Source: a virus (lineage: Duplodnaviria > Caudoviricetes). From it: DNA of 52,267 bases. This document shows, in pieces, positions 2,341-52,221 of the stretch. The first letter of the stretch is position 1. Every line of letters begins with the position of its first letter. The stretch lies in the IMG/VR virus record IMGVR_UViG_3300012683_000011, positions 1-52,267 of that record; one strand, given 5' to 3'. Under the pieces are notes generated by a model, which saw only the letters and a list, made by a program, of their open reading frames with translations, had not been told where the DNA came from and did not search any database. A program made the position numbers and the translations under genes.

Positions 2341-2799
2341 TAGCCAATATGGCTTTTTCTGGCGACGGTAGTCCCCGGACCTAACTCGTGTACGCTTATA
2401 GAGTAATCTATAACTCTCGTACATATCTGAGCTTACACAGTCAGCCGGAAACGTAACTCTAGGTTCAATCCAACCGTTAGTTGGAAAAGCCTTAATGTAT
2501 TGCATTAAAATTGTATCAAATTTCCATGTACGCAACCCTCCATAATAAATATCATTGTAGCGGGAAATGACGTGTTGGTAGAAATTCTTAACCCAAAGTA
2601 CGTGATCTCGTGACAACGTGACCCACAATAAGTTTGGGTGATTTTGTAAATCTAATGCATAATGTGGTTCTAAGATCATGCAAAGTATTGCTGAAGAAAG
2701 TAACGGTTCAAGTTCCTTAGCATACTTTTGTATAGTTTTATCACTGAGCCACCAAGCGCATGTTTGTGGATCAGGATGTACGAAGTATATGGGTTCCAT
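2329..2799 (-). CDS. divergent pyrimidine-dimer DNA glycosylase (DenV/Pyr_excise)-like protein
   Basis: IYFVHPDPQTCA..SDK..QK...LLSSA..NHP..LWV resembles the family pattern IFxLDxDPxxxA..DKHxxKM..NHP..W. Confidence 0.55.
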   Translation of the reverse strand: MEPIYFVHPDPQTCAWWLSDKTIQKYAKELEPLLSSAILCMILEPHYALDLQNHPNLLWVTLSRDHVLWVKNFYQHVISRYNDIYYGGLRTWKFDTILMQYIKAFPTNGWIEPRVTFPADCVSSDMYESYRLLYKRTRVRSGDYRRQKKPYWLLTE

Positions 2800-2808
2800 G
2801 TGTCACCT

Positions 2809-3012
2809 TCATTTGAAGCGTAGTTCAAAGGTTTCTGATAAAATAAGTTTAGGAAAGCCTACATACTTACGGCCAATTGGCATCGTGACACCGTGATCTA
2901 TAAAATAACAACTTGGAACCCCATTCGGGTATGAAATAACTACATATAAAGTCGATAATGGTAAATTCAAGGCGAATTTTAGCATTTGTTCTGTATATTG
3001 TTGTTTTGTCAT
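2809..3012 (-). CDS. hypothetical protein
   Basis: 67-aa ORF in operon context. Confidence 0.55.
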   Translation of the reverse strand: MTKQQYTEQMLKFALNLPLSTLYVVISYPNGVPSCYFIDHGVTMPIGRKYVGFPKLILSETFELRFK

Positions 3013-3108
3013 ATTTATAGACCGGAAGTAAGCCCTAACTCTATAGGGTATTGGCGGTTATGGCGCGCAGTTAAACGTTTAACCCTCGGCATGGAGTAAA
3101 AATGCCAG

Positions 3109-3242
3109 TGCGATAGAATAACGTTTATTGAAAGTAGGTATGGTATGTAAAAAGTAAGTAGTAGTTATATAGGGGGTAGATATATGGGATTCCCCATTTT
3201 CCAATGCCTTACCCTTATTCTTAAAAACGTCATTCTATCGCA
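3109..3242. repeat. inverted repeat around an AT/purine-skewed core (candidate origin)
   Basis: TGCGATAGAATAACGTTT (3109-3126) vs AAACGTCATTCTATCGCA (3225-3242), one mismatch. Confidence 0.7.
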
Positions 3243-3388
3243 TCGATCGGTGGCTAGGGGGTATTTAGTTAACAGGTGTTAACATTGGCCCATTGCAGCT
3301 TGCAGTGGCCCCAGGATCGACGCTAGGTGGCCTAGGCTGCCCCAGGCTCGACGATCTAGCTTAAAAGGTGGCAGAGTAGGGGGTGGCC

Positions 3389-3877
3389 CTACCCATGGTC
3401 AGATTGATGTGAAATGTACTGATTTTGAAGAGTTTTAAGTTCTTTTTCAAGAGCATTGACACGTTGTAACAGTGTTTCTTTGTCTTCAATAATCGCTCTA
3501 AAATTCATTAAAAGAACTTCTTTTAGACGAACTTTTAGACGAAAATGATTTCTAATTTCACTTTCACCAGTGAATTCACAAACACAATCTTCGTCTAAGA
3601 ATTGCTCTAATTGTTTTAGTGGTAATGTGACTTCGTGACAACGTGACGTTGTAATGTTTGGGCTAACGCTATCTAAAATATTAAAAGCATTACTTTCAGC
3701 TACAATGTCTACAACTTGATTACATTGATTTGCCATTTTAAAAGCTTCTTGTCGTAACGTATCTCTATATTCTTTTTGTTTTACTAAATCATTATTATAC
3801 CAAAAATAAGGTAACGCGGATATACAATGTCTCACAATGTCACCAGACGCATAGCGATTGCTTCCCAACGGGGCCAA
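3389..3877 (-). CDS. hypothetical protein with C-terminal coiled coil
   Basis: 162-aa ORF. Confidence 0.65.
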   Translation of the reverse strand: MAPLGSNRYASGDIVRHCISALPYFWYNNDLVKQKEYRDTLRQEAFKMANQCNQVVDIVAESNAFNILDSVSPNITTSRCHEVTLPLKQLEQFLDEDCVCEFTGESEIRNHFRLKVRLKEVLLMNFRAIIEDKETLLQRVNALEKELKTLQNQYISHQSDHG

Positions 3878-4089
3878 TTTACGTACTTCTCAAAACCTTC
3901 GAGAAACTTGTGAAAGTCTCTCATAATCATGTCGTACATTTGCGTAAGAGAAACAATAAGCTTCTCTCGACACGTTGAACGAAGCTTCATATTGCTAACC
4001 GCATTAGCAATCTTCTTCGTGTACTCATCAATTGCTTGAGAATTGATGATTAGTGTGTCGTGTATAATAAACTTAGCCTGGAGAATCAT
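3832..4089 (-). CDS. hypothetical protein
   Basis: ORF preceded by GAGGT RBS. Confidence 0.65.
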   Translation of the reverse strand: MILQAKFIIHDTLIINSQAIDEYTKKIANAVSNMKLRSTCREKLIVSLTQMYDMIMRDFHKFLEGFEKYVNWPRWEAIAMRLVTL

Positions 4090-4270
4090 TTGTTACCTCG
4101 CCTTCACTTTTGTAGTAGTGGGTACGGATGAATAAATTTAACTTGTCGATAAGATTAAATAATTCAACTAAATTCTTTGCCTCAAATAAGTCTGTTGGCC
4201 TACTAATATTATCTATGTGAGCGCTCATAGCAGTAATTAACGTAGCAGCTTCGCCTTTACTCAGTTTCAT
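4073..4270 (-). CDS. hypothetical protein (start probably MKLSKGE...)
   Basis: GGAGG RBS before the ATG at 4270 inside track ORF 4073-4369. Confidence 0.6.
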   Translation of the reverse strand: MKLSKGEAATLITAMSAHIDNISRPTDLFEAKNLVELFNLIDKLNLFIRTHYYKSEGEVTNDSPG

Positions 4271-4736
4271 TGGTAGCCTCCATTGGCTTGTCACAGACAA
4301 GTTTCTTTTTCGGGACCATTTCTTCTGTTTCAACCCACTTACAGGATTGACCACTAATATGAAGCTCAATCAAAATATTGTTATTGCGCCAATATTTACG
4401 TAAAGAGCGCTCAGGGTCATCTTTATTAGGCCAATCTTTTCTAGCCCCAAAGCCATTGAATGAAAGAGCCTTCAAATATGGTAAAATCTTTTGTGCATTA
4501 TCGAACCAAAGATCAACTTCTAATCCCTCGTCACCATATTGATAAAAATAAACGCAGTCAGTATCGTGGCCGTTTTCCTTAGCAACGTCGTAAACAATAC
4601 TGTAAAGTTTCTCGTATTTCTCTTTTACATTGTTACGTCGTTTCGCCGCTTCTTCCGCTTCTTTTGTTTGGTAAGCATTCCATGTTTCAAACGTTTGCAT
4701 AACTGTTCCTGTATACGAAGTGTGTTTGTGTTTCAA
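4257..4736 (-). CDS. hypothetical protein
   Basis: 159-aa ORF; true start may be the ATG at 4700. Confidence 0.7.
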   Translation of the reverse strand: MKHKHTSYTGTVMQTFETWNAYQTKEAEEAAKRRNNVKEKYEKLYSIVYDVAKENGHDTDCVYFYQYGDEGLEVDLWFDNAQKILPYLKALSFNGFGARKDWPNKDDPERSLRKYWRNNNILIELHISGQSCKWVETEEMVPKKKLVCDKPMEATNETE

Positions 4737-4917
4737 AGACTTGTCTTACAATTACTTCTTCTTGTAACAATTGATCTAAAGCTTGTATGAACACGTCGTA
4801 GCGGTATGTGTTCCAGGCGCCGACACCTAGTGACGCTTTTAGCTGTGAATAAGTTTTGTTATTCATCCGCAATTGAGCGACGATACTTTTCACCATGCTA
4901 GAAATGGGAATGAACAT
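4687..4917 (-). CDS. hypothetical protein
   Basis: 76-aa ORF overlapping its neighbours. Confidence 0.55.
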   Translation of the reverse strand: MFIPISSMVKSIVAQLRMNNKTYSQLKASLGVGAWNTYRYDVFIQALDQLLQEEVIVRQVFETQTHFVYRNSYANV

Positions 4918-5236
4918 AATCCGCTATTTCTTTGAATGTTTTATTTTGCTCGTCGTTAAGAGTAACGATTCTATGAATTTCATCTAAAGTGATTTTAAAA
5001 TGCAGTTCTGGTAGTATGTAAGTGGCGTTTGGCCCTTCAAAATGTGCCCCTGTAATTACAGCGTAATCATTCTCATCATAGATGATGCGTTGTTTTAGAA
5101 CAGCGTGACGAAGAATCCCAAGTGCGCAGTAATGGCAATCTCCGTCAATGATCTTTACAAGATCAAGTGTACAGTGTTTATCTTCATCAGCATTATTTAA
5201 TGCTTCGACGAATTGTTCTTTTAAATGAGGGTCCAT
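4898..5236 (-). CDS. conserved phage hypothetical protein (YCALG...LND..TFKEIAD type)
   Basis: AAGGAA RBS; motif pattern typical of small phage proteins. Confidence 0.7.
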   Translation of the reverse strand: MDPHLKEQFVEALNNADEDKHCTLDLVKIIDGDCHYCALGILRHAVLKQRIIYDENDYAVITGAHFEGPNATYILPELHFKITLDEIHRIVTLNDEQNKTFKEIADYVHSHF

Positions 5237-5250
5237 GTTTAGTTCCTTTA

Positions 5251-5333
5251 TACCCGTGGTCAGACTTGCACTGACAAGGCATCACTGCCGGCACTTTTTA
5301 AAAATGCTATGTTTGCTATTTCATCACACGGGC
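5251..5333 (-). tRNA. trnL: tRNA-Leu(TAA), no encoded CCA
   Basis: Acceptor GCCCGTG/CACGGGT, anticodon arm GCATT-TTTAAAA-AGTGC, long variable arm GGCA-GTGA-TGCC, T arm GTCAG-TGCAAGT-CTGAC, discriminator A. Confidence 0.85.
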
Positions 5334-5342
5334 GAGTGAAAG

Positions 5343-5510
5343 TTACTTTTTAAGTATTTTGTCTGTGGTTGTACGAACTGAAAAGTATTCAACGATAAAT
5401 TGTTTTTCACCATGCAATAGAGTTTTACGCCACGTTACGCTAAACCCCATGCGTCTTAATTCATCGCGACGTTGTAACGCCGTGTCAATGTGGTTAAAAG
5501 TTTCGATCAT
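5343..5510 (-). CDS. 55-aa hypothetical protein (below the track cut-off)
   Basis: MIETFNHIDTALQRRDELRRMGF...; ATGA overlap with the upstream stop. Confidence 0.65.
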   Translation of the reverse strand: MIETFNHIDTALQRRDELRRMGFSVTWRKTLLHGEKQFIVEYFSVRTTTDKILKK

Positions 5511-5695
5511 ACCATTTCTGCCTTACAGTTACAATAGTAAGGAAATTCCAGTACCCAAATGACTTCTTTAATTTTATACATTATATTTTTGTAGTAAATT
5601 AAATCGCCCCATGCAGGCGGGGAAGGTAATTCAAATAAGTCATCTTGGTGTTTAGTTTCATTTTTGAGTATTTTAAACTCGATATTAATTTTCAC
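5507..5695 (-). CDS. hypothetical protein
   Basis: GGAGG RBS; GTGA overlap. Confidence 0.65.
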   Translation of the reverse strand: MKINIEFKILKNETKHQDDLFELPSPPAWGDLIYYKNIMYKIKEVIWVLEFPYYCNCKAEMV

Positions 5696-5901
5696 AACTT
5701 ACCTCCGTAAAGATGGGCACGAATTCTTAGTGCTTCTTTAATAAGATGTTTGTATTGATCGGTTTTACCGTAATGCTTCTTAATCACTTTAGCGGAGTAA
5801 CGCAAACGTTTGATTTCGTTGTTGACTCGTTCACTAATAATTATAGTCTTATTAGAGTTAGTTTTGCGACAACGAATTATTCTGGTTATTTCAGTACGCA
5901 T
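5692..5901 (-). CDS. basic hypothetical protein
   Basis: translationally coupled ORF. Confidence 0.6.
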   Translation of the reverse strand: MRTEITRIIRCRKTNSNKTIIISERVNNEIKRLRYSAKVIKKHYGKTDQYKHLIKEALRIRAHLYGGKL

Positions 5902-6136
5902 AAAGTTTTCGTCTTCGTAATTCAGTGATTATACTAAGATATTCTTCATTTTCATCAATCAATTGCTGCATAAGCAACTCCACAATAACTTCACGGAGTA
6001 TGTTTATATCTTCCGTATCTACTTTATTAAGTAGAGCAATGATTTTATCGCGGAATTGTTTGTGCGTCATTGTTACTCCGTTACTCCAATTCAAGAGTAA
6101 ATTTGTATGGCTTACCATTGGTGGATTGAATTTCAA
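5891..6136 (-). CDS. hypothetical protein
   Basis: ORF; probable start MTHKQ at 6070 after GGAG. Confidence 0.6.
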   Translation of the reverse strand: MKFNPPMVSHTNLLLNWSNGVTMTHKQFRDKIIALLNKVDTEDINILREVIVELLMQQLIDENEEYLSIITELRRRKLYAY

Positions 6137-6293
6137 AAGACTTAATCTTTCGATCCGTACCCAACTCTAAGTAAACACCATTATTTTCGTACAATACAAC
6201 CCGTTTAATCGCTGCTTGCGCAACTAATGCAGAAGCTAAACCGACTGCTATAGAGAATACTATTACTGTGAGCCAATAAAAAAGTTTATTCAT
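6081..6293 (-). CDS. small protein with N-terminal TM helix
   Basis: hydrophobic segment LFYWLTVIVFSIAVGLASALV. Confidence 0.65.
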   Translation of the reverse strand: MNKLFYWLTVIVFSIAVGLASALVAQAAIKRVVLYENNGVYLELGTDRKIKSFEIQSTNGKPYKFTLELE

Positions 6294-6651
6294 ATTTCTG
6301 CTTTATGAATGCGAGAATATTAGCGGCGACTTGTTCTTTGGTTGCTTCTTTACCAAGACTAATATTGTTATATCTGTGTCGATTTGGGGTACCTTCAAAA
6401 TCTGGCCAAAAGAGATTCATAAATTCATCCGTTTGTAAATCAAAGAATTCTCTTAGAACACAGAAGTCTGTTTTTCCTTTGAAGAAATTTGCCCACATAA
6501 ACCAAGCTTCACCCATTGCACAACCGCACGTTGGTGAACATGTCGTTGCACTAAAAGTATTAAAGTCAAACTTCTCGTGGTAGAGGTTACCGCGGATTAA
6601 ATGTTTGACTAATTTAAGCAAACGTTGTTTATGATGTAGTTTTGTAGTCAT
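6286..6651 (-). CDS. hypothetical protein (Cys motif CGCAMGE)
   Basis: 121-aa coupled ORF. Confidence 0.7.
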   Translation of the reverse strand: MTTKLHHKQRLLKLVKHLIRGNLYHEKFDFNTFSATTCSPTCGCAMGEAWFMWANFFKGKTDFCVLREFFDLQTDEFMNLFWPDFEGTPNRHRYNNISLGKEATKEQVAANILAFIKQKYE

Positions 6652-6854
6652 TGTTTCTTCTCGAAAAGTGGTTTACTAGGGCCTGGGCAAAACTCTGTTA
6701 ATGTTTTAGACCAAAGTGATAAACCAGCAAAATGTTGTTTTAGAACTTTGGGGTGAGCGCAGTAAACACCATCAGGATCAGCCCCAGCGTATTTACAATG
6801 TTCGCAACGTCTATTTTCCACAGGTTTCATAATGCCTCTGCTGCGTGTTTCCAA
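6648..6854 (-). CDS. small Cys-rich protein
   Basis: CEHC...C...C pattern. Confidence 0.6.
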   Translation of the reverse strand: METRSRGIMKPVENRRCEHCKYAGADPDGVYCAHPKVLKQHFAGLSLWSKTLTEFCPGPSKPLFEKKQ

Positions 6855-7102
6855 AGACCGTCAATCTTTGTGCCATACTCAATGAGTAACTTACCTTTTT
6901 CTCTTGTTAGCTGCGTTATTTCTTCACTACTTGTGTAATACTCATTAAGTTTTTTATCTACAGAGTCTAATTGTTCTTTAAGTTTCTTACACTCAATAAG
7001 CTTTTTAATGATGTCTTTGAGGTCTTCGATTTCATCGTTCCTTTGATCATTACGATAATCGTCGAATTCAGCATCAGCTTTTGCATCATAGTCTGTAGTC
7101 AT
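6827..7102 (-). CDS. coiled-coil hypothetical protein
   Basis: GGAGG RBS; coupled ORF. Confidence 0.7.
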   Translation of the reverse strand: MTTDYDAKADAEFDDYRNDQRNDEIEDLKDIIKKLIECKKLKEQLDSVDKKLNEYYTSSEEITQLTREKGKLLIEYGTKIDGLWKHAAEAL

Positions 7103-7320
7103 TTGTTCCTCCAGTAGCCCATGCTAGAGATGATGAAGAAGAAACATTGTGTCAACGTGACACCGAAATTAGCAGTGTAGATTGACCATGTTATCATTAA
7201 TACATTGGCGAGTAAATAGAGTGTGAAACCTAAACGTCTCGACTTGCTTAGCGGTGACGTTGTGAGGATTGCGCCAGCGACGCTAATTGGAAACGCCATA
7301 TACTGAAGATCATTTAGCAT
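7099..7320 (-). CDS. three-TM membrane protein (PnuC/PQ-loop-like fragment)
   Basis: three hydrophobic helices with GF..YLLAN...W and GYWRNK. Confidence 0.6.
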   Translation of the reverse strand: MLNDLQYMAFPISVAGAILTTSPLSKSRRLGFTLYLLANVLMITWSIYTANFGVTLTQCFFFIISSMGYWRNK

Positions 7321-7717
7321 AATCTAAAACTCTTTTATACTCACGGTCCCAGGAATCAAAGAAATAAAGATCGCCGTCGCGCATTACGGGGCATTCAAAT
7401 TCTTCAAGAATTTCACCTAATAGAAAGAAAAGATTAAATCGTTCACGATTTCGCATTACGATACTTGCTAATGCTACCTCGTGACTTCGTGTAGGTTTAG
7501 CGAAACTAATTTGGTACATGAAATCTTCTTCAATATTGTAGCAAATCTCAAAGTTCTCATCGGGGAGAAATGCTTTCCAATAAAACTTCTGCCCATGAAT
7601 TTCGTTAACAACGTCATGATCTTCGTTGCATGCAATACGCATTCTACTTCTCCGCCAAACAATCACCGTTGGTGTTATAAAAATCGAAAGCAAAAGGGCA
7701 ATTCTTTTTAGCGCCAC
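7310..7717 (-). CDS. hypothetical protein
   Basis: ORF; probable start MRIAC after GGAG. Confidence 0.6.
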   Translation of the reverse strand: MALKRIALLLSIFITPTVIVWRRSRMRIACNEDHDVVNEIHGQKFYWKAFLPDENFEICYNIEEDFMYQISFAKPTRSHEVALASIVMRNRERFNLFFLLGEILEEFECPVMRDGDLYFFDSWDREYKRVLDYAK

Positions 7718-7934: not shown

Positions 7935-7935
7935 G

Positions 7936-8031
7936 TTACCACTCGTCGTAATGTGTAGGTTTGTTAGGTGGCTTTTTCTCTTTATAGAGAATTATAGACC
8001 CAATAAGCATGATGAAAATAAATGTTAGCAT
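7936..8031 (-). CDS. 31-aa membrane mini-protein
   Basis: MLTFIFIMLIGSIILYKEKKPPNKPTHYDEW; stop abuts the next start. Confidence 0.45.
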   Translation of the reverse strand: MLTFIFIMLIGSIILYKEKKPPNKPTHYDEW

Positions 8032-8044
8032 AATTAATACCAAC

Positions 8045-8152
8045 GTAACGTTGTAACGATGGAACTTCTTAAAGCGCCACTTTGCTACTGGCCCGGGACT
8101 TCGCAACTGGTCTTTAATGGTTATTTCGTTTCAAACACCGTTACAACGTTAC
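8045..8152. ncRNA. stem-closed structured domain A
   Basis: Perfect 14-bp IR GTAACGTTGTAACG/CGTTACAACGTTAC; internal TTAAAG/CTTTAA stem; intergenic. Confidence 0.55.
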
Positions 8153-8159
8153 ATTTGAA

Positions 8160-8387
8160 TTACTTAACTTGCAGCATAAGATCGAGAATTGCGATCATAG
8201 CGTTGGTGGAAACTTCCATGTCGCTTGAATGGCGAATGTTCCAGTGATGCTTGCGCAGTTTGTGCCGTTCGCGTTCAGTCTTGCAAGCCTTCATTGCTTT
8301 GTGAAAGGATTTGCCAATCTTTGAATTGGTGGGGATGTTAGCGCTTACAACGGTGTGAAGGTTGCGCGCGTCTTTGTTATTGCTCAT
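8160..8387 (-). CDS. basic hypothetical protein with GC-richer codons
   Basis: GGAG RBS; 75 aa. Confidence 0.7.
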   Translation of the reverse strand: MSNNKDARNLHTVVSANIPTNSKIGKSFHKAMKACKTERERHKLRKHHWNIRHSSDMEVSTNAMIAILDLMLQVK

Positions 8388-8626
8388 TTTAACTCCGTGA
8401 GGTTGTACTTTGTGATTTGTGGGAGGAATTCATTTTCGTTGTACTGAAAAGCCCATTTATGGCCATAAATACGAAACATATTGTCCCTAGCGAATTCAAA
8501 AGACATATTTTCAAACTTAACATACTTCTGTGCATACAAAGAATTAAGTCCGAATGTAAAGTACCAATTTCCATTAGTCCTTTCATCGTTACTTATTGCT
8601 TGCATATTTAGCTCCAGCAATGTCAC
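8384..8626 (-). CDS. conserved phage hypothetical protein (WYFTFG...WAFQY)
   Basis: motif pattern seen in small phage proteins. Confidence 0.65.
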   Translation of the reverse strand: MTLLELNMQAISNDERTNGNWYFTFGLNSLYAQKYVKFENMSFEFARDNMFRIYGHKWAFQYNENEFLPQITKYNLTELK

Positions 8627-8751
8627 TGCTTATCAGCTTGCTAAAGGCTTTCTCGTTCCATAGTTAACGGATGTAGCTCGCTTGGTATGGAAGTACGTTG
8701 ACACTCTCGTCCGCAGAGACTAAACGTATTAAAGCAGTGACAATGTTGAAG

Positions 8752-8973
8752 TTAAGACTGAGTGATTTTCATTTGGTAGTAAACTTGAAATATTTTAATT
8801 ATTTCAACGTTAAATTGCGCAACCATCGTAGCTACAGTATTTTCTAAATCTTCGTTTACTTCGTTATTGTCTTCAAAATACTTTAGAAACTCTGGTTTAA
8901 TAGAGTTACGAATTGCGTCTGTTGTATTAATTGCAAACTTATCGATGTCGATACACAAGTCTTCGATTTTCAT
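8752..8973 (-). CDS. hypothetical protein
   Basis: AAGGT RBS; 73 aa. Confidence 0.65.
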   Translation of the reverse strand: MKIEDLCIDIDKFAINTTDAIRNSIKPEFLKYFEDNNEVNEDLENTVATMVAQFNVEIIKIFQVYYQMKITQS

Positions 8974-8991
8974 ATAGTACCTTGTTTAATG

Positions 8992-9179
8992 TTCACAATG
9001 TCACAGTGTAACGTATGCTCAGTTGATAAAACCTAGTATTAGTTACTTCCGCATCTTAATTAAGTTTACTGTGTCAAGGCTAACCACACAGTCATTACGA
9101 ATGATAATTAAGTTTATTAGCGGTCGCTTCGGAGGAACTTATCCATTATCGAAACTACGTTACGCTGTGACAATGTGAA
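8992..9179. ncRNA. stem-closed multibranch domain B
   Basis: 24-bp IR with 2 mismatches (8992-9015/9156-9179); nested CTTAATTA/TAATTAAG, ACTGTG/CACAGT and TCATT/AATGA stems; no ORF. Confidence 0.6.
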
Positions 9180-9181
9180 AA

Positions 9182-9280
9182 CTAAAAATTGTTATTTCGC
9201 GGAGCGGTGTACAATACTAAAGCTAACAAACCAAAGAATATTACAAAGTTTAGAATAGTTTGTAAAATAGCTATCAGCAT
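9182..9280 (-). CDS. 32-aa single-TM mini-protein coupled to the lysozyme gene
   Basis: MLIAILQTILNFVIFFGLLALVLYTAPRNNNF; TAATG overlap. Confidence 0.55.
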   Translation of the reverse strand: MLIAILQTILNFVIFFGLLALVLYTAPRNNNF

Positions 9281-9738: not shown

Positions 9739-9752
9739 AATTAACTCCTTAA

Positions 9753-9932
9753 CGTTGTAACAATGTCACAATAACTTGGTGTTTGAATCGTTCGTAGAGT
9801 TATGCTTACGATTACCCGTATTAAAGTAACCCAGGGCATTTCTATTTACTGTTCAATCCTTGAATACGTAGCAACCTTATATGAGGGCCGAATTTGTGTG
9901 CTACGAATTGTTATTGTAACAATGTTACGACG
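9753..9932. ncRNA. stem-closed structured domain H
   Basis: CGTTGTAACAATGTCACAATAAC / GTTATTGTAACAATGTTACGACG IR with 3 mismatches. Confidence 0.55.
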
Positions 9933-10143
9933 CAAAATCACTATAGGTTTGTTCATCAAGAATTTTGAAATGGCGGCGAATGAAACGGTGAGAGCGTTGC
10001 TTAAAACCAGAAATCGGAATATTCCAGCAGCAAGGACAGAATTTACCGTGGCGAACCGTCGCAGCAGGAATTCCGTTAATTGCATAGAACTTTGAAGGTT
10101 TGTGTTTCTTGTATTTGCCGCGAGTGCGAGGGGAACGTGACAT
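9925..10143 (-). CDS. basic hypothetical protein with CPCC motif
   Basis: GGAG RBS; 72 aa. Confidence 0.6.
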   Translation of the reverse strand: MSRSPRTRGKYKKHKPSKFYAINGIPAATVRHGKFCPCCWNIPISGFKQRSHRFIRRHFKILDEQTYSDFAS

Positions 10144-10145
10144 CG

Positions 10146-10373
10146 TTACTCCGTTGGGTAAAAATGTTTCACTATTTGTTCTAAATTATCAATTAGAAAT
10201 TCAGAACCAAATGTTGCCATTGGGTTGATTTCTAATTGCGCTTTCACAAAACGATCAAAATCTTGTTGTGAAAGCGTAACTGGAAAACTGAGTTTCATAT
10301 CTGTAGTCTTACGTAGATAGAGTTCGCAAGCGCGACGACGTGAAATTGTGTGAATTGTTCGGTATTTTAGCAT
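10146..10373 (-). CDS. hypothetical protein
   Basis: 75-aa ORF. Confidence 0.6.
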   Translation of the reverse strand: MLKYRTIHTISRRRACELYLRKTTDMKLSFPVTLSQQDFDRFVKAQLEINPMATFGSEFLIDNLEQIVKHFYPTE

Positions 10374-10390
10374 ATTGAGCCTGTAATGTT

Positions 10391-11062: not shown

Positions 11063-11085
11063 GGGTTGCTCCTTATTGATGTGGC

Positions 11086-11151
11086 GATGTAACTAAGTAA
11101 CTATTTATAGCTACAAATTTTGAGGCTATAACTTAATTACGAAGTGACATC
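11086..11151. other. long intergenic hairpin based on GTNAC motifs
   Basis: GATGTAACT/AGTGACATC base; TTATAGCT/GGCTATAA upper stem. Confidence 0.5.
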
Positions 11152-11165
11152 GTTACGTCAAGAAG

Positions 11166-12664: not shown

Positions 12665-13210
12665 TGTAATGTGACGTTGTGACAATGTTTAGGCGCAAAC
12701 TAAGGATTGTGCATAAACGTATGTGTCATTGTGACATGGTACGTTGCAATATGCAATGGAGTGTGTCGTTTTGACAATTAGTAGTTTTTAGTGCTGTGTT
12801 TATTGATAAAAAGTGAGGGTTGTTACAACGTGACGTTGTTTTTGTAGTCACAATGTCACGTTGTAACAATCACACTTTCCAACGTTGCATTTACTATTCA
12901 CATAGTAACAGCCTGTGAGTAAGTCACACACTCACGATGTAACGTTGTCACTTTCACAAACTTTGGCACAGTTACGTCGTGACACTGTGACGATGTCACG
13001 TTGGTACTGTGTACTGGATCAAGAAGTATTTGAGACAGGCACAACGTGAGTTTGTACTTGATTGTGTAGTTGAGACGCTGTGACGTTGTCACGGTGTAGA
13101 GTTGTTAGTGTGCCAAAGTGTGACGCTGTGACATCGTGACATTGTTAAGTGTGTCACACAAGAGAGTGAGGGGGCGGGGAGGGTTTAGCGGTTGCATTGT
13201 TACATCGTGG
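12665..13210. repeat. dense cluster of (GTNAC-RNY)n 8-bp-period repeats
   Basis: e.g. GTTAC GTC GTGAC ACT GTGAC GAT GTCAC (12971-12999), GTGAC GCT GTGAC ATC GTGAC (13120-13140), and a 20-bp hairpin at 12820-12869. Confidence 0.85.
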
Positions 13211-13757: not shown

Positions 13758-13785
13758 AATATAAGCCTATTTTAACCAAAGTCAA
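13758..13785 (-). promoter_or_regulatory. putative sigma70 promoter
   Basis: TTGACT-16 nt-TATATT followed by an AGGAG RBS. Confidence 0.5.
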
Positions 13786-13956
13786 GTAGTTTTATTCACT
13801 GATAATATGGCGTAATCACGCCTGGGGGTATACCATTTTGAGAATGGATATACTATATAGAATAATATCCTAATATAATATAGTGATGATGTAGTAGTAA
13901 TATTCTCTTATACACCCGGGCCAAGTTACGCCATATTATCCGGGAATATAACTACT
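13785..13956. repeat. long imperfect inverted repeat around an AT-rich core at the strand switch (candidate origin or pac)
   Basis: GATAATATGGCGTAA/TTACGCCATATTATC core extending to about 45 bp; TATA-rich centre. Confidence 0.75.
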
Positions 13957-14049
13957 CCACACCACCACTAATAACCTTGATTTTTATGCATTGCATTTAC
14001 CCGCTCACGACGTAACGTTGTCACAAGCTCCCAAGTACAAAACCAAAAC

Positions 14050-15261
14050 ATGCACACAACCACATTAAAAGGGCTCCTAGATGGTATAACCTCAAAAGAC
14101 GAGCTATACCATGTACTTCGTAACCATAAACATTCCATACGTCGCTTAGTAAATCAATCAACTGGCAAACCTTTCATCGTCCCGCATCACCTACTTTGTT
14201 CAACAAAGAAAGAGTTCTTTTTATCATTACTATATAATACCGGCGTAACGTCGTCACTTTGTGACGCTGCTTCCGATGTAACTTCTCACTCTGGTATAAA
14301 ACAATCGCCAATACCACTCATTTTCCCACGTTGCCGTCCGCACGAAGAAAAATTTCGACGCCAGTTTAAACTCGCAACTTGGTTAGACGTTCCATGCGGT
14401 TCAATTTTTACTTATGAACTCTCGCGCCGCAACACTTGGCGCTGTCGTTTTGTTGGTTCAGATGGCTTTCGTTGTCGAGAATACTCAAAAAATAACACTT
14501 GCTTCTTTTGTTGGCATCACTATGCTCTGGCAGCAAAACTAATTCAAAATATGTCATCAGAAGAGCAAAACTTACTTGGCGCTTCAATAAAGTCACAGTC
14601 AATCCGTGAACTCTATGAAAAGCATTTAAATGATCCAAACAGGAAAAATATTGAATCTGAGCTAGCTTTAATGCGGACGCTATTAACTGCTGTTGTTTCT
14701 AACATTCAATCCAAATCACTAGCGGATATACCGCTTGATGCGATCGCAACGGTGGTGACACTTTGTGAAAAGGTATCTTCGGCTGTTCTGACTATGACTA
14801 ATATTGAGACTAAGCTTGGGGATAGATTTAGTATCGAGCAAGTTAATGTTATTACGCTGCGACTGCTTGAAAGTTTTGTTAAGATAACTCAGCCTAATGA
14901 AGAACAGTGTCTCCAGCTTGCGGCTGTCTTTGAGAATTTGTCAATTAATAAAACTTTGCCTGTTATTACTTTACACGGTTCTACTTCCGATACAACTAAG
15001 CAAGCGACTCAAAGTTCAAAAGCTACGTTATCACCAGAAGCTACAGATATAGTCGCGTTGACATATTATGATAAAGTTACGCCATCACATATTATTCCAA
15101 AGCATTTTACAGCAAATGACATTGCTGTTCGGGTAGACCCGAATGTTTACTCTGATAGATTTACTCGCCAACAAGACGCAGCTAATTTTAAAACTAAACT
15201 TGAGAACCTCAAGCGCGCCGATCCTGACGTAACGTTGCAACTAGCCAGAATGGGATTATGA
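14050..15261 (+). CDS. putative terminase small subunit-like protein
   Basis: First gene of the late arm; C..C..C..H cluster followed by LNDP...IESELALMR, as in TerS-like proteins. Confidence 0.5.
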   Translation: MHTTTLKGLLDGITSKDELYHVLRNHKHSIRRLVNQSTGKPFIVPHHLLCSTKKEFFLSLLYNTGVTSSLCDAASDVTSHSGIKQSPIPLIFPRCRPHEEKFRRQFKLATWLDVPCGSIFTYELSRRNTWRCRFVGSDGFRCREYSKNNTCFFCWHHYALAAKLIQNMSSEEQNLLGASIKSQSIRELYEKHLNDPNRKNIESELALMRTLLTAVVSNIQSKSLADIPLDAIATVVTLCEKVSSAVLTMTNIETKLGDRFSIEQVNVITLRLLESFVKITQPNEEQCLQLAAVFENLSINKTLPVITLHGSTSDTTKQATQSSKATLSPEATDIVALTYYDKVTPSHIIPKHFTANDIAVRVDPNVYSDRFTRQQDAANFKTKLENLKRADPDVTLQLARMGL

Positions 15262-21952: not shown

Positions 21953-21954
21953 AT

Positions 21955-46875: not shown

Positions 46876-46899
46876 TGCATTTTGCAGTGCCTTTAAAAA

Positions 46900-47010
46900 G
46901 TAACGATGTCACGTTGAACCCCGTATTGACTCTACGGTGTCGCAAGCCGTAGATTTTAATCACCCAATATCTCAGGGATTTTTACTGCCCAAACAACGTG
47001 ACATCGTTAC
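46900..47010 (-). ncRNA. stem-closed rod-like domain F
   Basis: Perfect 17-bp IR GTAACGATGTCACGTTG/CAACGTGACATCGTTAC; inner AATCCC/GGGGTT, TATTGG/TCAATA and TCTACGG/CCGTAGA stems on the minus strand. Confidence 0.6.
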
Positions 47011-47020
47011 AAAGTTACTG

Positions 47021-47851
47021 TTAAAACGGCGGCTGATCTTTCTTCGCGGTAGCATTAGCCAAAGTTTCCTCGGGCGAAACATTCGACTGCTTCTCAGCCT
47101 GAGCAATTGAAGCAGCCATAAACGCAGCCTTCTGTTCAGTACAAGCAGTCTTCAGCATTAACAATGCCGGCCATTTCTCTGCCGCTACAAGAGTCGGTAA
47201 ACCGATAGAAGGCTCAAAGTAAATGTGTCCTTCCTTATCCTGTTCCTTCGTGGAACCGAATTCCCAAATAGCACTGCCAAGAGGCGCAGTTAACTTTTCA
47301 TTGGTCACAGGATCAACAATAGGCTTGTAAGCGCGCATACGATTTAACCACTCACGGCCCAATCTCCAGCTTGAGCGGGAGAAAGTAAGCTGCATCATAT
47401 CCTTGTAATTGCCGGAATACTCGGGGACACAGACAAGGAAATTATACTGTTCATCAATCTTATTTACTTCCTTGCCGGCCGGAGTCCGAACCTTAACACG
47501 GTTCTGTGAATCCTTGGACTGCTGCGACATAACGTCACAAGAACGGCTAAGAATCTTTTTGTCCTGCGCAGACTTATCGGGGTTCCATTCGATCCATTCA
47601 TTCCACCAAGTGATGGGGATGACATTCATATTCTTACCGATGTCGCAAACAATTTGCTTGCCAGATTCATCGGCCCACTGTCCAGCTTTCGCTAAACCAT
47701 TCTGGACCATATCACTTAATCCCTGCTGTAAACGCAGGCGGGGGACGATATAATCATTAGGACGCATGTCCTTAAAATCATCATCCGCTGACGCGCCGAA
47801 TGCCATGACAGCATTATTAGTTGGTACGATAACTTTGTTCTCATCAACCAC
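47021..47851 (-). CDS. putative ssDNA-binding protein
   Basis: VPRLRL.Q..S pattern, C-terminal PF, AAGGAG RBS, replication context. Confidence 0.55.
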   Translation of the reverse strand: MVDENKVIVPTNNAVMAFGASADDDFKDMRPNDYIVPRLRLQQGLSDMVQNGLAKAGQWADESGKQIVCDIGKNMNVIPITWWNEWIEWNPDKSAQDKKILSRSCDVMSQQSKDSQNRVKVRTPAGKEVNKIDEQYNFLVCVPEYSGNYKDMMQLTFSRSSWRLGREWLNRMRAYKPIVDPVTNEKLTAPLGSAIWEFGSTKEQDKEGHIYFEPSIGLPTLVAAEKWPALLMLKTACTEQKAAFMAASIAQAEKQSNVSPEETLANATAKKDQPPF

Positions 47852-47877
47852 AGGTGGCTCCTTGTATTTGGTCTATT

Positions 47878-47905
47878 ATTATATGGACCAAGGTGAATAA
47901 AGCAA
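47878..47905 (-). promoter_or_regulatory. putative sigma70 promoter
   Basis: TTGCTT-16 nt-TATAAT upstream of ORF 47021-47851. Confidence 0.55.
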
Positions 47906-47912
47906 TGAAAAT

Positions 47913-48353
47913 CTAATACTTATCTACGTAATTTTCTGGGACAATGTAAGCAATATATTGGTATTGCTGACCAATCTTATTAACTTCTTCTTGAGTCGGG
48001 ACGCGAATTTGTACGGCTAACCGACGGTTCTTTTTAACATAATTCGTAGAGTCGTCGGCAAGCATTGGCGGGTAGCCTGGGATAATTACCCAGCTATTAT
48101 ATGGGATGCGCTGTGATTGAATACTCACACCGCTATGATGCGCGTCGCCATCAATTGTAGTTAAGTTGTCGGTAGAATGATACGCCGTGACTTCGGCAAA
48201 TTGTACCCTCAGTCTACTAGCGAATTCCTCAACGTTCAAGCGATCCATCTCTAGTAACTTATTACGAGCTTCGACATATTGAAGGCGCATACCAATTAAT
48301 AGTAAACCTAATGATAAACATGTTGCCATTAATACAGCAATTAAAACTCTCAC
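47913..48353 (-). CDS. membrane-anchored degenerate 3D-domain (MltA-like) protein
   Basis: N-terminal TM; VTAY...IPY...IPGY...ADD. Confidence 0.55.
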   Translation of the reverse strand: MRVLIAVLMATCLSLGLLLIGMRLQYVEARNKLLEMDRLNVEEFASRLRVQFAEVTAYHSTDNLTTIDGDAHHSGVSIQSQRIPYNSWVIIPGYPPMLADDSTNYVKKNRRLAVQIRVPTQEEVNKIGQQYQYIAYIVPENYVDKY

Positions 48354-48856
48354 TTTGGCAGCTTTCTGGATTTAATTGTGTTCATGATGAAGACATTAAC
48401 AAAAGGCTGTGGCTTCCCGCCGGAGATAATTACTTCTTCAAAGAATGCTTGTAATGATTTCTGGTGTACGGTTTCTTTAACTAATTCAGCGCCTTTAGGA
48501 TCTTGCTTCATCCATTCGATCATCGCCTTTTCATTTTCCTTCTTACAAGTAATTGAATACTTTAAGTCAGGAGTAATTCGCTTAGTCTCATTCTCAAACT
48601 CAATATCCAAAGATTCAAAGCCTTCTTGCTCCATCATCTTATTAATGCGCGCAGCGAGCCCATCAATTGTTCGCCCACGAATCTTAGCAATACTTTCAGC
48701 AACATCCTTAATCTTATCAAGGATTAATGCGAACTCAATATTGGTTTTAAGGTTACTCCCCTGGGTACCAATAATTAATTGCCCAGCCTCTTCATCAATG
48801 TTTTTGAGTATGAGTTCTAAATACTCGGACATTGTTTTTAAATTGTCAGTAATCAT
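48350..48856 (-). CDS. conserved phage replication-region protein
   Basis: EWM....ELVKETVH..SL.AF pattern. Confidence 0.65.
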   Translation of the reverse strand: MITDNLKTMSEYLELILKNIDEEAGQLIIGTQGSNLKTNIEFALILDKIKDVAESIAKIRGRTIDGLAARINKMMEQEGFESLDIEFENETKRITPDLKYSITCKKENEKAMIEWMKQDPKGAELVKETVHQKSLQAFFEEVIISGGKPQPFVNVFIMNTIKSRKLPK

Positions 48857-49178
48857 TTTGTATTTCTACATATTGACGTTGTGAGTTATTAAAGACCAGA
48901 AACCCCATAGTCTTTCTATGCTCTTGATTAAGCCATAAAAATCCAGCGAGCCCAATAATCCAACTAGGACCATTCAAAACCAGAACATCAGTTTCATCCG
49001 CTTGATCGAGCTTACTCGATAAAAGAGCGGTGTAATCCGCCATCGTTTGATTGTCACAATGTGGCGGAATGTGAGTGAACAAGAAAACTTTCTCTTTTTG
49101 AATAGAGGAGTAATCGTCACCTTTTTCTTCCTCGCGGCGGGGCTTAGACTTATCTACTAAAATAAATGCTTTGTTCAT
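48846..49178 (-). CDS. hypothetical protein
   Basis: 110-aa coupled ORF. Confidence 0.65.
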   Translation of the reverse strand: MNKAFILVDKSKPRREEEKGDDYSSIQKEKVFLFTHIPPHCDNQTMADYTALLSSKLDQADETDVLVLNGPSWIIGLAGFLWLNQEHRKTMGFLVFNNSQRQYVEIQNDY

Positions 49179-49179
49179 A

Positions 49180-49416
49180 TTAATCTTTCAATGTTACGAT
49201 GTCAAAATTTCCATTACTATGCAATGCTGATTGAGTCCCCTTAACAATAATTAAATTGTTACTAGACAGGAACTCAACCAGTATTGCTTGCATGTTATCA
49301 GCATGTTGCTGAGTGGTGGTTATGTCGAGACAATTACGATTAGTGAAACGATCACTAATGTAGTTTTTCAGAACGTTATTTAATTTGTAGCCAACAATTA
49401 TACTTATACTATTCAT
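49180..49416 (-). CDS. hypothetical protein
   Basis: ATGA overlap. Confidence 0.55.
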   Translation of the reverse strand: MNSISIIVGYKLNNVLKNYISDRFTNRNCLDITTTQQHADNMQAILVEFLSSNNLIIVKGTQSALHSNGNFDIVTLKD

Positions 49417-51263
49417 ACTGGCAATTTGCCTTGCAGCAATTCTTTCAATTTGGAAACATCTTTAATTGATTCGGCTAAGTCCCTTTTTGACTGCAAAGCC
49501 GCTGCGATAACTTCTTCGATTGTATCTTCGTATACATAGTCTCGATAGAGGACCGGATTTCTTTGTCCAATTCTATGGTTACGCGCTTCAGCTTGATCTC
49601 TTGCGCCGTAGTTATAATCGTTGGAATAGAAAAAAGCGGTTTTACACCTGTCATTGTCGATGTCTTGATTACCGAGCAGATTGAGTCCAGTACCACCAGC
49701 TTTTGCATTAGCGATAAGGACTCTAAATTTATGATCGGAGTTAAACGCATTTTTATATTTCTCCCTATCAGAGTCGGTTGTTTTTCCGTAGAATGAGCCA
49801 CACGTGTAGCCATTCCCTCCTTTAGCGAACATAGACCGAATGCGTGTAGTTATTTGTTCTATATCATAATTGAACCTAGCCCAAATAATCACCTTCGACG
49901 TGTCGACGATGTCTTCAAGATCGTCTAGCATTTCATTAAGTTTGGCGTCCCCTCCAGGGATAACCATAATCTTATTCTCACGCTGTTCATTATTATCATC
50001 GTGAGCAACGCCAAACCCACAACAAATTTGCGACAACTTTAACATTTGAACAATGATAAAGTCAGCATCAATATGAACATTCTCCTCAAGCATTAATGTG
50101 AACTGGCTTCTGAATTGATAATATAGAGCCGCCATGGCTGGTGGCATTTCAATCCGGCGAGTGTCATATAGACGATCCGGAAGCTTGAGACATCGTGACT
50201 TTTTGACGATAAAAGATACGCGAGCCATATTTTCTTGTAAGGCTTCGACGTTCTTGAAGCCAACAATCTTATCAATATCTTGCCCATCATTATCAATCTT
50301 TTTAAGTTCACAGAATTCTCTCTTATAGCCAGCGAAAGTATTATAGCCCAAAACACCGGGCTGAAGTAATTCAAATTGCGACCACAAGTCTAAAAGATTA
50401 TTACTAACAGGAGTACCAGTTAGAATCCTCTTCATTTGTGTACACGGCATCTGAGTTAACAATACACCAGCTTTATACCGCTTCGATGCTGGAGACTTCG
50501 CATAATGCGATTCATCCATAATAATCATGCGAGGCATAAATAAAGCTAATTGTTCTGTCATGCGGTGTACTGCGTCCCAGGAAACAATAGCGATTTTGAA
50601 TCTGCTACGACACTGAATGAGTAAGAGCAAGTCTTCGATACCAGTAATCTGCCCATCGATAATTTTAATCTCATACTGAATTAACTTCAGTAGATATTTA
50701 TTTAATTCATCGACCCAATTCTGACGAATTGATTTAGGGCAAACGATTAAAGTTCTGAACGTGTCACCATCTTCCAATCGTAATGCATAATGATTTAATT
50801 CGGCAATCGCACAGAGAGTTTTACCAGTACCCATTTCCATGAGGTATGCGAAGTATGGGTAATTTAATGCAGCTTCGACAGCCACATTTTGATGTGGCAT
50901 TAATTCCCAAGTAGCGAGCCCTTTGTAGTCTGTGTTCTCATTATCGAATAAGTAATTCCACCGTTTAGCAGATCGCTTCTCGTCTAACTTTGAAGTGATG
51001 GTAATAAACGCCAGCATAAACTGAGCGTTTTCAGAAACGGAATATTGGTCTTTAGTCCATGTACTTTCGATATGTTCTAAGGTATTCTTATTAAGTGGAA
51101 TTTTGAATCCACCCATTCCACCTTGTTTGACCCAAGTTCTTTCCTTAAACTCTTGAGCCCACGTACGGAATTTTTCATAATTAGCATCATTTGCATTAGC
51201 CCCTTCTCGGAGCGTCATATGCAAATTCTTATTATCAAATTGGTCTAAATGAAACCAAATCAT
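49413..51263 (-). CDS. SNF2-family SF2 helicase
   Basis: EMGTGKT, MDESH, LTGTP, GGTGLNL, QAEARNHRIGQ. Confidence 0.93.
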   Translation of the reverse strand: MIWFHLDQFDNKNLHMTLREGANANDANYEKFRTWAQEFKERTWVKQGGMGGFKIPLNKNTLEHIESTWTKDQYSVSENAQFMLAFITITSKLDEKRSAKRWNYLFDNENTDYKGLATWELMPHQNVAVEAALNYPYFAYLMEMGTGKTLCAIAELNHYALRLEDGDTFRTLIVCPKSIRQNWVDELNKYLLKLIQYEIKIIDGQITGIEDLLLLIQCRSRFKIAIVSWDAVHRMTEQLALFMPRMIIMDESHYAKSPASKRYKAGVLLTQMPCTQMKRILTGTPVSNNLLDLWSQFELLQPGVLGYNTFAGYKREFCELKKIDNDGQDIDKIVGFKNVEALQENMARVSFIVKKSRCLKLPDRLYDTRRIEMPPAMAALYYQFRSQFTLMLEENVHIDADFIIVQMLKLSQICCGFGVAHDDNNEQRENKIMVIPGGDAKLNEMLDDLEDIVDTSKVIIWARFNYDIEQITTRIRSMFAKGGNGYTCGSFYGKTTDSDREKYKNAFNSDHKFRVLIANAKAGGTGLNLLGNQDIDNDRCKTAFFYSNDYNYGARDQAEARNHRIGQRNPVLYRDYVYEDTIEEVIAAALQSKRDLAESIKDVSKLKELLQGKLPV

Positions 51264-51688
51264 ATTTTATTTTTAATAACCTCTACTAACTGTTCAAATG
51301 TAAGAGTCAAATATTCAGTGTATGGAACGCCATTGTATAAATAGCATTGATTCTTATTTACATCCCAAACATACATTGGGCAATAAATTAGTCTTGCCCA
51401 AAACTCCATCGGAATAACTCTACGCTGAGCGCCATCTAATAAATTCATGAAATCATCTATTGACGGTAGACGCTTTAATCTATAGGCTTTACATTCAACA
51501 TGCCATCCTTGCTGATTATTATTCCCAATCCACAAATCGGGCATGCCAGCCATCCGTGTGGATGCCACCATAACTCTAGCGAAGATTTTCCACTTATTTA
51601 ACTGAGCAGTTAATTCGTGTTGGAAATCATGTTCATCTTTAAAAAAGGTCACATTGTTCCGATAATAATATTTCGTTAAGCATACCAA
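51260..51688 (-). CDS. VRR-NUC/PD-(D/E)XK nuclease (resolvase-like)
   Basis: E..FQ...GMPDL...VECK...Q, adjacent to the SNF2 helicase. Confidence 0.75.
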   Translation of the reverse strand: MVCLTKYYYRNNVTFFKDEHDFQHELTAQLNKWKIFARVMVASTRMAGMPDLWIGNNNQQGWHVECKAYRLKRLPSIDDFMNLLDGAQRRVIPMEFWARLIYCPMYVWDVNKNQCYLYNGVPYTEYLTLTFEQLVEVIKNKI

Positions 51689-51974
51689 AAAGATTTGGAA
51701 TAAAAACTAAAACCTTTGCTAAGAATTCTGGTGTCCAAACGTCACGTTGTAACTTTGTAACTATTCTCATGACTAATAAGTATCTAGCTTCTAAAACTTC
51801 ATGGTATCCAAATTGTTGGTATACCCAATCGACTAATGCTTCTGCAATGTAACGCTGACTGGATTGGCCCCACGTCATTATTTCAAGATTATATTGGATA
51901 TACTTGAGTAATTGTTCTTCGGTAGTTAATTCAACATTTCGTAATGTATTACCTATCTCAATGTGGGCGAGCAC
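51639..51974 (-). CDS. hypothetical protein
   Basis: coupled ORF. Confidence 0.55.
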   Translation of the reverse strand: MLAHIEIGNTLRNVELTTEEQLLKYIQYNLEIMTWGQSSQRYIAEALVDWVYQQFGYHEVLEARYLLVMRIVTKLQRDVWTPEFLAKVLVFIPNLFGMLNEILLSEQCDLF

Positions 51975-52221
51975 ATTCTAATCCTATATGTACAGAAGTT
52001 TGGAAGGCAACTTCTGCTTCAATACGATTCACTAACGAAACATACCAGGATATAAACTGTGGAACCCATTCAACCGATTTAAAGTTGTCTTGCTTGTAAT
52101 TCTTCTTTAACACTTTTTCAAGATGCCAACCCCATGGCGCATCCATGCGGTAGATACATAGAATCATGTTACGAACTTCGCCGGCCCAATTGAACTCGTT
52201 ACACTGTGACATACATTGCAC
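51958..52221 (-). CDS. hypothetical protein
   Basis: ORF near the window end. Confidence 0.5.
   Translation of the reverse strand: MQCMSQCNEFNWAGEVRNMILCIYRMDAPWGWHLEKVLKKNYKQDNFKSVEWVPQFISWYVSLVNRIEAEVAFQTSVHIGLECARPH

Follow-up and report, generated by a model that had tools for sequence, protein, structure and literature searches.

Phased GTNAC-RNY octamers form the arms of intergenic hairpin elements in a tailed-phage genome

In phage T7, nearly every gap between early genes holds an RNase III processing hairpin, and the classical substrate of RNase III is a stem of about two helical turns. Among DNA-binding proteins, MetJ is known for its tandem 8-bp met boxes and omega for its heptads. 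Hairpin arms made of short tandem repeats also occur in bacterial genomes and in rRNA intervening sequences, and for these we know of no mechanism. They include octamer-array hairpin cassettes and the 23S rRNA intervening sequences that bear an open reading frame (ORF; PMC4990558), in which inverted arms of 8-nt repeats close a loop. REPINs and other miniature inverted-repeat elements (PMC3116915) are likewise intergenic hairpin-forming inverted pairs with conserved arms. Here, a comparable arrangement is described in a linear virus record of IMG/VR (IMGVR_UViG_3300012683_000011, 52,267 bp, analysed whole and called the window below; completeness estimate 87%), where GTNAC pentamers separated by RNY spacers recur every 8 bp and build the arms of hairpins lying between genes.

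A preliminary description of this DNA had claimed a self-complementary GTNAC-RNY motif with an 8-bp period, and the claim is borne out by counts: the window has 35 copies of the dimer GTNACNNNGTNAC, whereas 100 dinucleotide-preserving shuffles contain 0.41 on average and never more than 2. The 293 GTNAC words of the window fall at an exact 8-bp spacing in 35 pairs, while the other spacings from 5 to 15 bp are represented by 0-3 pairs each; a spacing of 16 bp is found in 9 pairs, no other spacing up to 48 exceeds 7, and echoes of the period appear at 16, 24, 40 and 48. When every gapped pentamer was scanned blindly at spacings of 5-24, GTNAC at 8 scored 35 and the runner-up combination of word and spacing 12. 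The period extends into the flanks of the dimers, and the RNY spacer is present in 29 of the 35 dimers versus 66 of 231 isolated GTNAC words. Both GTNAC and RNY are self-complementary classes, with dyad centres that alternate between the N of GTNAC and the N of RNY. The dimers combine into 27 arrays of 2-4 units each, and these units are heterogeneous (GTGAC, GTCAC, GTAAC and GTTAC with mixed spacers), so that arms hold only 2-4 good units; central bases are equal in 17 of the 35 dimers, the commonest central pair being G,G (9/35), and arrays of at least three units never repeat a spacer. All exact runs that had been listed were recovered, those at 5465 and 11270 proving degenerate (one exact unit plus near-units), and the two peptides quoted as coding copies are real (ITTSRCHEVTL in ORF 3389-3877(-), VTSSLCDA in ORF 14050-15261(+)).

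The arrays outside genes are for the most part arranged in inverted pairs: 16 of the 20 non-coding arrays belong to pairs that are at least 71% complementary, two (11089/11144) form a weaker pair, and two are unpaired. In the four isolated intergenic pairs (8045/8140, 9000/9159, 9757/9916 and 46900/46998) the reverse complements agree at 13, 12, 11 and 13 of 13 positions. The motif leaves five positions free (the RNY spacer and the N of each GTNAC), and of these 5, 4, 3 and 5 match in the four pairs, where pairs more than 2 kb apart give a null mean of about 1.7. Full agreement at all five free positions is seen in 3 of 48 neighbouring pairs versus 5 of 425 distant ones (>2 kb). The free positions are thus matched within a pair and different between pairs, which argues for base pairing, or for the copying of one arm from the other, rather than for a protein that reads only GT.AC. 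An inverted-repeat finder (arm of at least 17 nt, at least 80% complementary, spacer 40-260) returned 13 long-range repeats, compared with 2.0 in 60 shuffles (maximum 9); of these 13, 11 map to non-coding DNA in the early and replication arms of the genome. In 11 elements taken together, Watson-Crick pairs account for 254 of 299 arm positions. The arms run beyond the 13-mers to 17-31 nt, with loops of about 10-148 nt overall and 74-148 nt for the isolated intergenic pairs, and fold z-scores on the transcribed strand range from -2.8 to -7.6 (-3.5 to -5.5 for the four isolated pairs). No 8-mer is common to three or more of 11 loops, so that the arms, and not the interiors, are the conserved part. 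The earlier remark that any two runs could pair holds locally, inside a single element, where free positions match and stems of 17-31 bp result; no evidence was found for a universal zipper that would join distant runs. A simple RNA hairpin inside a single dimer was rejected, as only 4 of 35 dimers have Watson-Crick central bases (hand count).

Thirteen long-range hairpin elements were counted, eleven of them with motif-bearing arms. Several fill the whole gap in which they lie, their arms extending to the stop codon on the upstream side and to the start codon or ribosome-binding site on the downstream side, and E1, E2, E3, E4 and E11 are each flanked by two minus-strand ORFs. The elements are as follows.

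E1, 8031..8166, minus strand: arms 8031-8061 and 8136-8166 (26/31 Watson-Crick), loop 74 nt, minimum free energy -38.8, z -4.0; arrays 8045/8140 are exact reverse complements; in the gap between 8160-8387(-) and 7644-7934(-), the 5' arm overlapping the upstream stop codon.
E11, 8608..8755, minus strand: arms 24 nt (20/24 Watson-Crick), loop 100 nt; single GTCAC/GTGAC units, the others degenerate; the stop of 8752-8973(-) and the start of 8384-8626(-) both fall within the arms.
E2, 8990..9181, minus strand: arrays 9000/9159 reverse-complementary at 12/13, loop 134 nt, z -5.5; between the lysozyme gene 9280-9738(-) and 8752-8973(-).
E3, 9745..9940, minus strand: arrays 9757/9916 reverse-complementary at 11/13, loop 134 nt, z -5.5; fills the gap between 9925-10143(-) and the lysozyme gene, the 3' arm abutting an AAGGAG ribosome-binding site.
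E6-E8, 10391-10554, 10537-10754 and 10737-10902, minus strand: three abutting hairpins in a chain, z -5.7 to -6.8; the arms consist of octamer arrays in partial decay (GTTAC/GTTAA/GTCTC and the like), and each middle arm, shared by two hairpins, is able to pair either way.
E13, 11081..11156, minus strand: arrays 11089/11144, a short irregular hairpin, the weaker pair.
E5, 12820..12869, no strand assigned: arms 20 nt, 95% complementary, loop 10 nt, z -6.1 and -7.9; arrays 12822/12855 are exact reverse complements.
E9, 12923..13149, no strand assigned: in-phase arrays 12923-12999 and 13072-13149 of about 10 units each, inverted, 71% complementary; among its motif-free units is the perfectly paired block CAAACTTTGGCACAGTTAC / 13104-13122.
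E4, 46895..47015, minus strand: arms 17/17 complementary (22 nt at >=80%), loop 77 nt, z -3.5; fills the gap between 47021-47851(-) and 46450-46875(-); arrays 46900/46998 are exact reverse complements.
E12, 3106..3245, minus strand: same size class, arms without the motif.
E10, 13781..13960, no strand assigned: arms 35-48 nt, 81% complementary, without the motif; loop 76 nt at 24% G+C, z -7.6; in the divergent gap between early (-) and late (+) genes, where to judge by its sequence it could be an origin or switch region.

The layout of the genome is that of a tailed phage.

1-13.7 kb, minus strand: small genes of the early region, including lysozyme (9280-9738).
14.05-40.2 kb, plus strand: packaging and structural genes of the late region.
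16739, 19228 and 30353, plus strand: terminase large subunit (TerL), portal, and a 1,039-amino-acid ORF in the tape-measure position.
40.2-52.3 kb, minus strand: replication genes (family A polymerase, primase-helicase, SNF2-type helicase).

Dimers number 29 in 1-14,300, none in 14,301-46,850 and 6 in 46,851-52,267, where 0.24, 0.30 and 0.03 are expected. The motif had been called genome-wide but uneven, and scarce across 17-46 kb. The unevenness and the scarcity hold, no copy of GTNACNNNGTNAC being present between 14,266 and 46,899, while the genome-wide part does not, as 25 of the 35 dimers are in the 5,505 nt of non-coding DNA (10.5% of the window; about 4.5 per kb) and 10 of 35 in the 46,762 nt of coding DNA (about 0.2 per kb), the split being based on an ORF-based gene list. 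The lack of dimers in the late region is partly due to the little room there, its non-coding DNA amounting to only 862 nt. Where an early-arm gap holds any dimer it generally holds more than one (two or more in 6 of 7 such gaps), and the stretch 10,374-13,224 contains 15 of the 35. The motif-armed elements themselves occupy gaps between co-directional genes at 8.0-10.0 kb and 46.9-47.0 kb and are piled up in the gene-poor stretch of 2.8 kb at 10.4-13.2 kb.

The anatomy of the motif is thereby largely explained: the phased octamers are the arms of intergenic hairpin elements, a real and strongly non-random feature, and the GTNAC-RNY octamer is best explained as the stem building block of hairpin-forming inverted-repeat inserts in the gaps of early and accessory genes. 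As to what the arrays do, our preference is a tentative one, formed from sequence: they may well be hairpin inserts like the rRNA intervening sequences, folding out of early transcripts, with the GT.AC phase read or written by some factor. Upon transcription of the early strand, the two arms would pair into a stem of 17-31 bp closing an unrelated loop of about 10-148 nt. This would fold the insert away from the message and bring the stop codon upstream of it close to the ribosome site downstream. The stem would by analogy be a double-stranded substrate of the kind cut by RNase III, as in 23S rRNA intervening sequences and the intercistronic sites of T7 early RNA. The arms would be bound, spread or maintained by a sequence-specific factor encoded either by the host or in the 13% of the phage that the contig lacks; such a factor is suggested because GT.AC stays every 8 nt while the other positions drift. 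Inverted repeats with spacers of 75-150 nt are poor cruciform formers in duplex DNA, which makes single-strand pairing, most simply in the early transcript, the likeliest form of pairing. The hairpin-insert reading is further supported by stem length, as the predicted folds, with arms of 17-31 nt, reach the stem of about 20 bp or more that characterises RNase III substrates.

Compared with the systems introduced above, the phage elements resemble the octamer-array cassettes and the ORF-bearing 23S rRNA intervening sequences in their inverted 8-nt-repeat arms, their closed loop and their position in gaps between co-directional genes. They differ in that the phage units are heterogeneous, the arms short and the carrier a phage, with no gene for the four-helix-bundle protein of PF05635, which full-length cassettes carry in the loop. 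The elements resemble the T7 sites in that hairpins with stems of about two helical turns stand in most gaps of an early operon, whereas the T7 sites are short and irregular and lack a phased word and loops of 75-150 nt; cleavage in the present phage is a prediction by analogy. REPINs share the general design, but their REP arms are unphased and tied to a RAYT transposase and their interiors are shared, while the phage loops are unrelated and no transposase was found.

Several observations weigh against a hairpin insert acting in RNA. Seven arrays inside ORFs, in all three codon phases, have no convincing partner and are left unexplained by the hairpin model, as is the conservation of GT.AC and R.Y every 8 nt; these two facts together point to a sequence-specific reader or writer. 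Wobble mismatches show no strand bias (G.U-compatible in 10 cases on the plus strand versus 12 on the minus strand) and both strands fold about equally, so that action as RNA is not favoured over action as DNA. In E9, the largest cluster, 71% complementarity compares with about 69% from motif symmetry alone (a rough estimate of our own). The units within arrays are heterogeneous, unlike those of the homogeneous bacterial arrays; PF05635 gave no match at E up to 10 in six frames of a contig that is 87% complete; the absence of close relatives leaves no evolutionary covariation to draw on; and no RNA run among the public sequencing runs searched contains the sequence. The arrays without a clear partner, two non-coding and seven in ORFs, are these.

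12671..12683: non-coding, no clear partner.
14012..14024: non-coding, 25 nt upstream of 14050-15261; no long-range partner; in a 26-nt direct repeat with 12926-12951.
2610..2622: in ORF 2329-2799(-), PHROG 624 'DNA binding protein'; unpaired.
3627..3647: three units, in ORF 3389-3877(-); weak gapped partner at 3829-3850.
6072..6084: where ORFs 5891-6136(-) and 6081-6293(-) overlap, immediately 5' to an ATG.
10137..10149: spans the junction of ORFs 9925-10143(-) and 10146-10373(-).
14245..14265: three units, in ORF 14050-15261(+).
51741..51761: three units, in ORF 51639-51974(-).
52198..52210: in ORF 51958-52266(-); 11/13 complementary to array 51741, 450 bp off.

These seven ORF arrays are more easily explained as protein sites, and the alternative that follows is that the arrays are tandem operator boxes for a small dimeric protein of ribbon-helix-helix type, one dimer sitting on each GTNAC unit and polymerising over 2-4 units to control early and accessory genes, with paired arrays 75-150 bp apart serving as looped operators. 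We regard this as possible but on the whole unlikely. It would account for an 8-bp period with two alternating dyad centres, for arrays of 2-4 heterogeneous units with fixed key positions, and for their location 10-40 nt upstream of start codons, and the met boxes of MetJ likewise come as 2-5 tandem degenerate boxes with an 8-bp period and dyads alternating at box centre and box junction. The phage dyads, however, fall on a base (5+3 nt) and not between bases, and inverted pairs whose free positions match, as the phage arrays show, are no requirement of a met operator. If a protein read GT.AC alone, the complementarity of free positions 80-150 bp apart and the pairing of motif-free parts of arms would go unexplained. 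A reader was also sought among the genes. PF01402 (RHH_1), PF07764 (omega) and PF06303 (MatP) gave no six-frame hit at E up to 10, so that no ribbon-helix-helix gene was detected with the first two, and Pfam applied to 50 ORFs of the window placed no DNA-binding family, helix-turn-helix included, above cut-off; with PHROGs, applied to 19 ORFs, the sole DNA-binding assignment was that of ORF 2329-2799 to PHROG 624. Two ORFs, 10146-10298(-) and 42506-42688(-), show a strand-helix-helix pattern by eye, and single-chain models predict two or three helices after an unstructured N-terminus, but these models are of low confidence, with predicted local distance difference test (pLDDT) scores of 66 and 75, and have no fold match at E 0.001 or better, and both ORFs are orphans. 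Of 17 sigma-70-like hits in 7.5-14.5 kb, 5 have their -35 hexamer supplied by an array, but promoter-like sites are not enriched (17 versus 18.2 in shuffles). Intrinsic terminators are not enriched either, and the Bacteroidota-type promoter word TANNTTTG is found 67 times against 61.8 expected. A role of the sites in packaging or partition, which the preliminary description had entertained, found no support.

It is improbable, in our judgement, that the arms are sites of recombination or transposition at the DNA level, that is, terminal or subterminal repeats of a miniature mobile element or the repeats of an invertible segment, with the enzyme encoded outside the contig. Such sites would fit inverted arms that are near-identical at unconstrained positions, as within-arm recombination would maintain them, and segments that are short, intergenic and upstream of genes, whose arms conserve the motif around unrelated interiors; the same arm design also brackets genes in other genomes. 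Against this, no recombinase, integrase or transposase family was found among 50 window ORFs by Pfam or 19 by PHROGs, and a single lytic-looking phage with about a dozen switches would have no precedent. The sole public run found to contain the DNA is labelled soil metagenome and is possibly the source sample; its contigs are identical to the window and free of joints, with contig ends at 9773-9792 and 11000-11020. No inverted or insert-free form was seen in this run, which is stored as contigs, a form that drops rare variants.

Little credence is given to a replication origin, in which the dense arrays at 12.67-13.2 kb together with array 14012 would be initiator iterons beside the AT-rich 13.5-13.9 kb and the dispersed pairs would be secondary. 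The crowding of 15 of the 35 dimers into 10,374-13,224 is in keeping with it, and two of the twelve AT-richest 80-bp windows fall at 13485-13564 and 13835-13914; yet these are not the genome minimum, ten others being as low or nearly so, the arrays occupy a dozen separate sites across 20 kb, a distance of 27 kb separates them from the replication genes at 40-51 kb, and iterons need no inverted partners.

Least probable is mimicry of matS, by which the 13-mers would recruit host MatP, for instance in positioning phage DNA or excluding MukBEF-type SMC complexes: exact matS words are two of the 35 dimers (at 12987 and 13080), central G then C is not preferred, the window has no MatP-like gene, and the sample is from soil, while MatP is to our knowledge confined to some Gammaproteobacteria. 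The matS motif is GTGACRNYGTCAC (PMC6907758, Table 2), and it shares with the phage 13-mer its length, the outer GT.AC and the RNY spacer class, but matS sites are solitary and chromosomal, not tandem, while the central base of the phage pentamer is free and its words overlap in tandem.

Known RNA families were searched for over the whole window and none reached the gathering score; below it, in 7.9-14.1 kb, there were only microRNA- and snoRNA-family matches, the best of them on plain hairpins. For the gene-poor 10.3-13.3 kb, other genetic codes (table 4 and TAG=Q) open no convincing gene. Several further repeats stand in or near this stretch. An inverted repeat of 30 nt (11617-11646 / 12241-12270, 93% complementary, arms without the octamer motif) encloses ORF 11673-12185(-), a helical orphan of 170 amino acids in the middle of the stretch that has no family by Pfam or PHROGs and whose Atlas model is helical and without a named family. 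A perfect 21-bp hairpin at 11331-11377 (loop 5 nt) looks, from its sequence, like a two-way terminator, and its flanking CACAC/GTGTG words recur at 11482-11505 and 12567-12584. The 26-nt direct repeat mentioned above (12926-12951 and 13999-14024, 88% identical) bounds a 1-kb segment in which the arrays are densest and which also contains two small minus-strand ORFs, the E10 repeat and, at about 13167-13182, a G-rich tract.

The pattern is not confined to this phage. Four units with free spacers were found in at least 119 viral stretches, and four units with RNY spacers in 30 viral stretches and at least 120 genome stretches of many phyla, notably Bacteroidota and actinomycetes, where by our own arithmetic, assuming uniform base composition, about 2 in 596 Gb would be expected. 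Exact inverted 13-mers 40-1200 bp apart occur in 17 of 255 fetched loci. Among 10 ORFs in such loops, one matches PF05635 'intervening-sequence protein' (E 6.7e-22, locus L213), one PqqD and one, below threshold, Mu gp36, and seven have no family. In loci of Alistipes, Hallella, Prevotellaceae and Flavobacterium, homogeneous arrays form inverted pairs around AT-rich, gene-free spacers. From their sequences, the elements of the window are best regarded as a phage form, with heterogeneous units, of the octamer-array hairpins present in many bacteria. No protein is common to the window and the other array-bearing loci beyond terminase, tape measure and helicase.

Other occurrences of the word have a different form. 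In three related contigs of P22-portal-type phages (L050:1-1100, L091:10200-12560 and L042:8000-10560; G+C about 54%), same-orientation GTNAC-TNN arrays of 8-bp period flank both sides of small genes of the Tad2-like and Acb2/Tad1 hairpin anti-defence families. In two related large phage contigs, L135 (6352, 9629, 10233) and L140 (28, 3305), one exact GTNAC-RNY-GTNAC 13-mer recurs after an AT-rich TTTATWTAAA box at gene 3' ends. A 90-kb phage record has 12 dispersed GTNAC-RNY-GTNAC words versus 1 in the control. Since the GTNAC-TNN arrays and the dispersed sites of the 90-kb record are no hairpin pairs, the GTNAC word may serve more than one biology.

Queries with TerL, the polymerase, the lysozyme and a 403-amino-acid protein found no close relative of the phage in the collections searched. 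The nearest relative is a 52.5-kb contig with 47% TerL identity, and none of the five TerL relatives searched matches the octamer motif. This nearest relative (50% G+C) is without GTNAC arrays and has a strong periodic word of 9/18 nt (CCNGT, 37 pairs at 9 nt), which may be a collagen-like coding repeat. The 403-amino-acid protein is the product of ORF 14050-15261(+), the first late-strand gene, which is Cys-rich and of no family; its relatives were found only in loci L005 and L006, immediately 5' of the terminase large-subunit gene, where a small terminase subunit is usually encoded. With regard to lineage or host, adjacent ORFs in 48350-49178 match Pfam families of cyanophage Pam3 (gp33-like DUF7307, E 9.5e-14; gp32-like, E 1.8e-6), which gives a faint hint. 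The single tRNA gene, a tRNA-Leu, had no match in the phage collection when searched for a host, and Shine-Dalgarno-like words, present ahead of 37 of 82 starts, are uninformative in this respect.

In the literature searched (supplementary files were outside it), no description was found of phased octamer hairpin arms in phages. A wider view, which is doubtful but would join the bacterial and the phage cases, is that phased GT.AC stems are the handle of a new kind of hairpin element, such that a factor recognising a duplex with GTNAC every 8 bp, whether DNA or a folded strand, inserts, copies or processes cassettes in bacterial operons, in 23S rRNA and in phage early operons. If so, the mixed units of the phage would show which positions the factor reads. 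This phage packs about a dozen elements into 20 kb, with units that have diverged except at GT.AC and the R.Y of the spacer, and its units separate the positions that pair from those constrained in sequence, a distinction that cannot be drawn from the homogeneous arrays of bacteria. Should the elements prove to be processing sites, phage early operons would have a novel form of punctuation; should they prove to be protein sites, they would represent a new operator system built in 8-bp steps.

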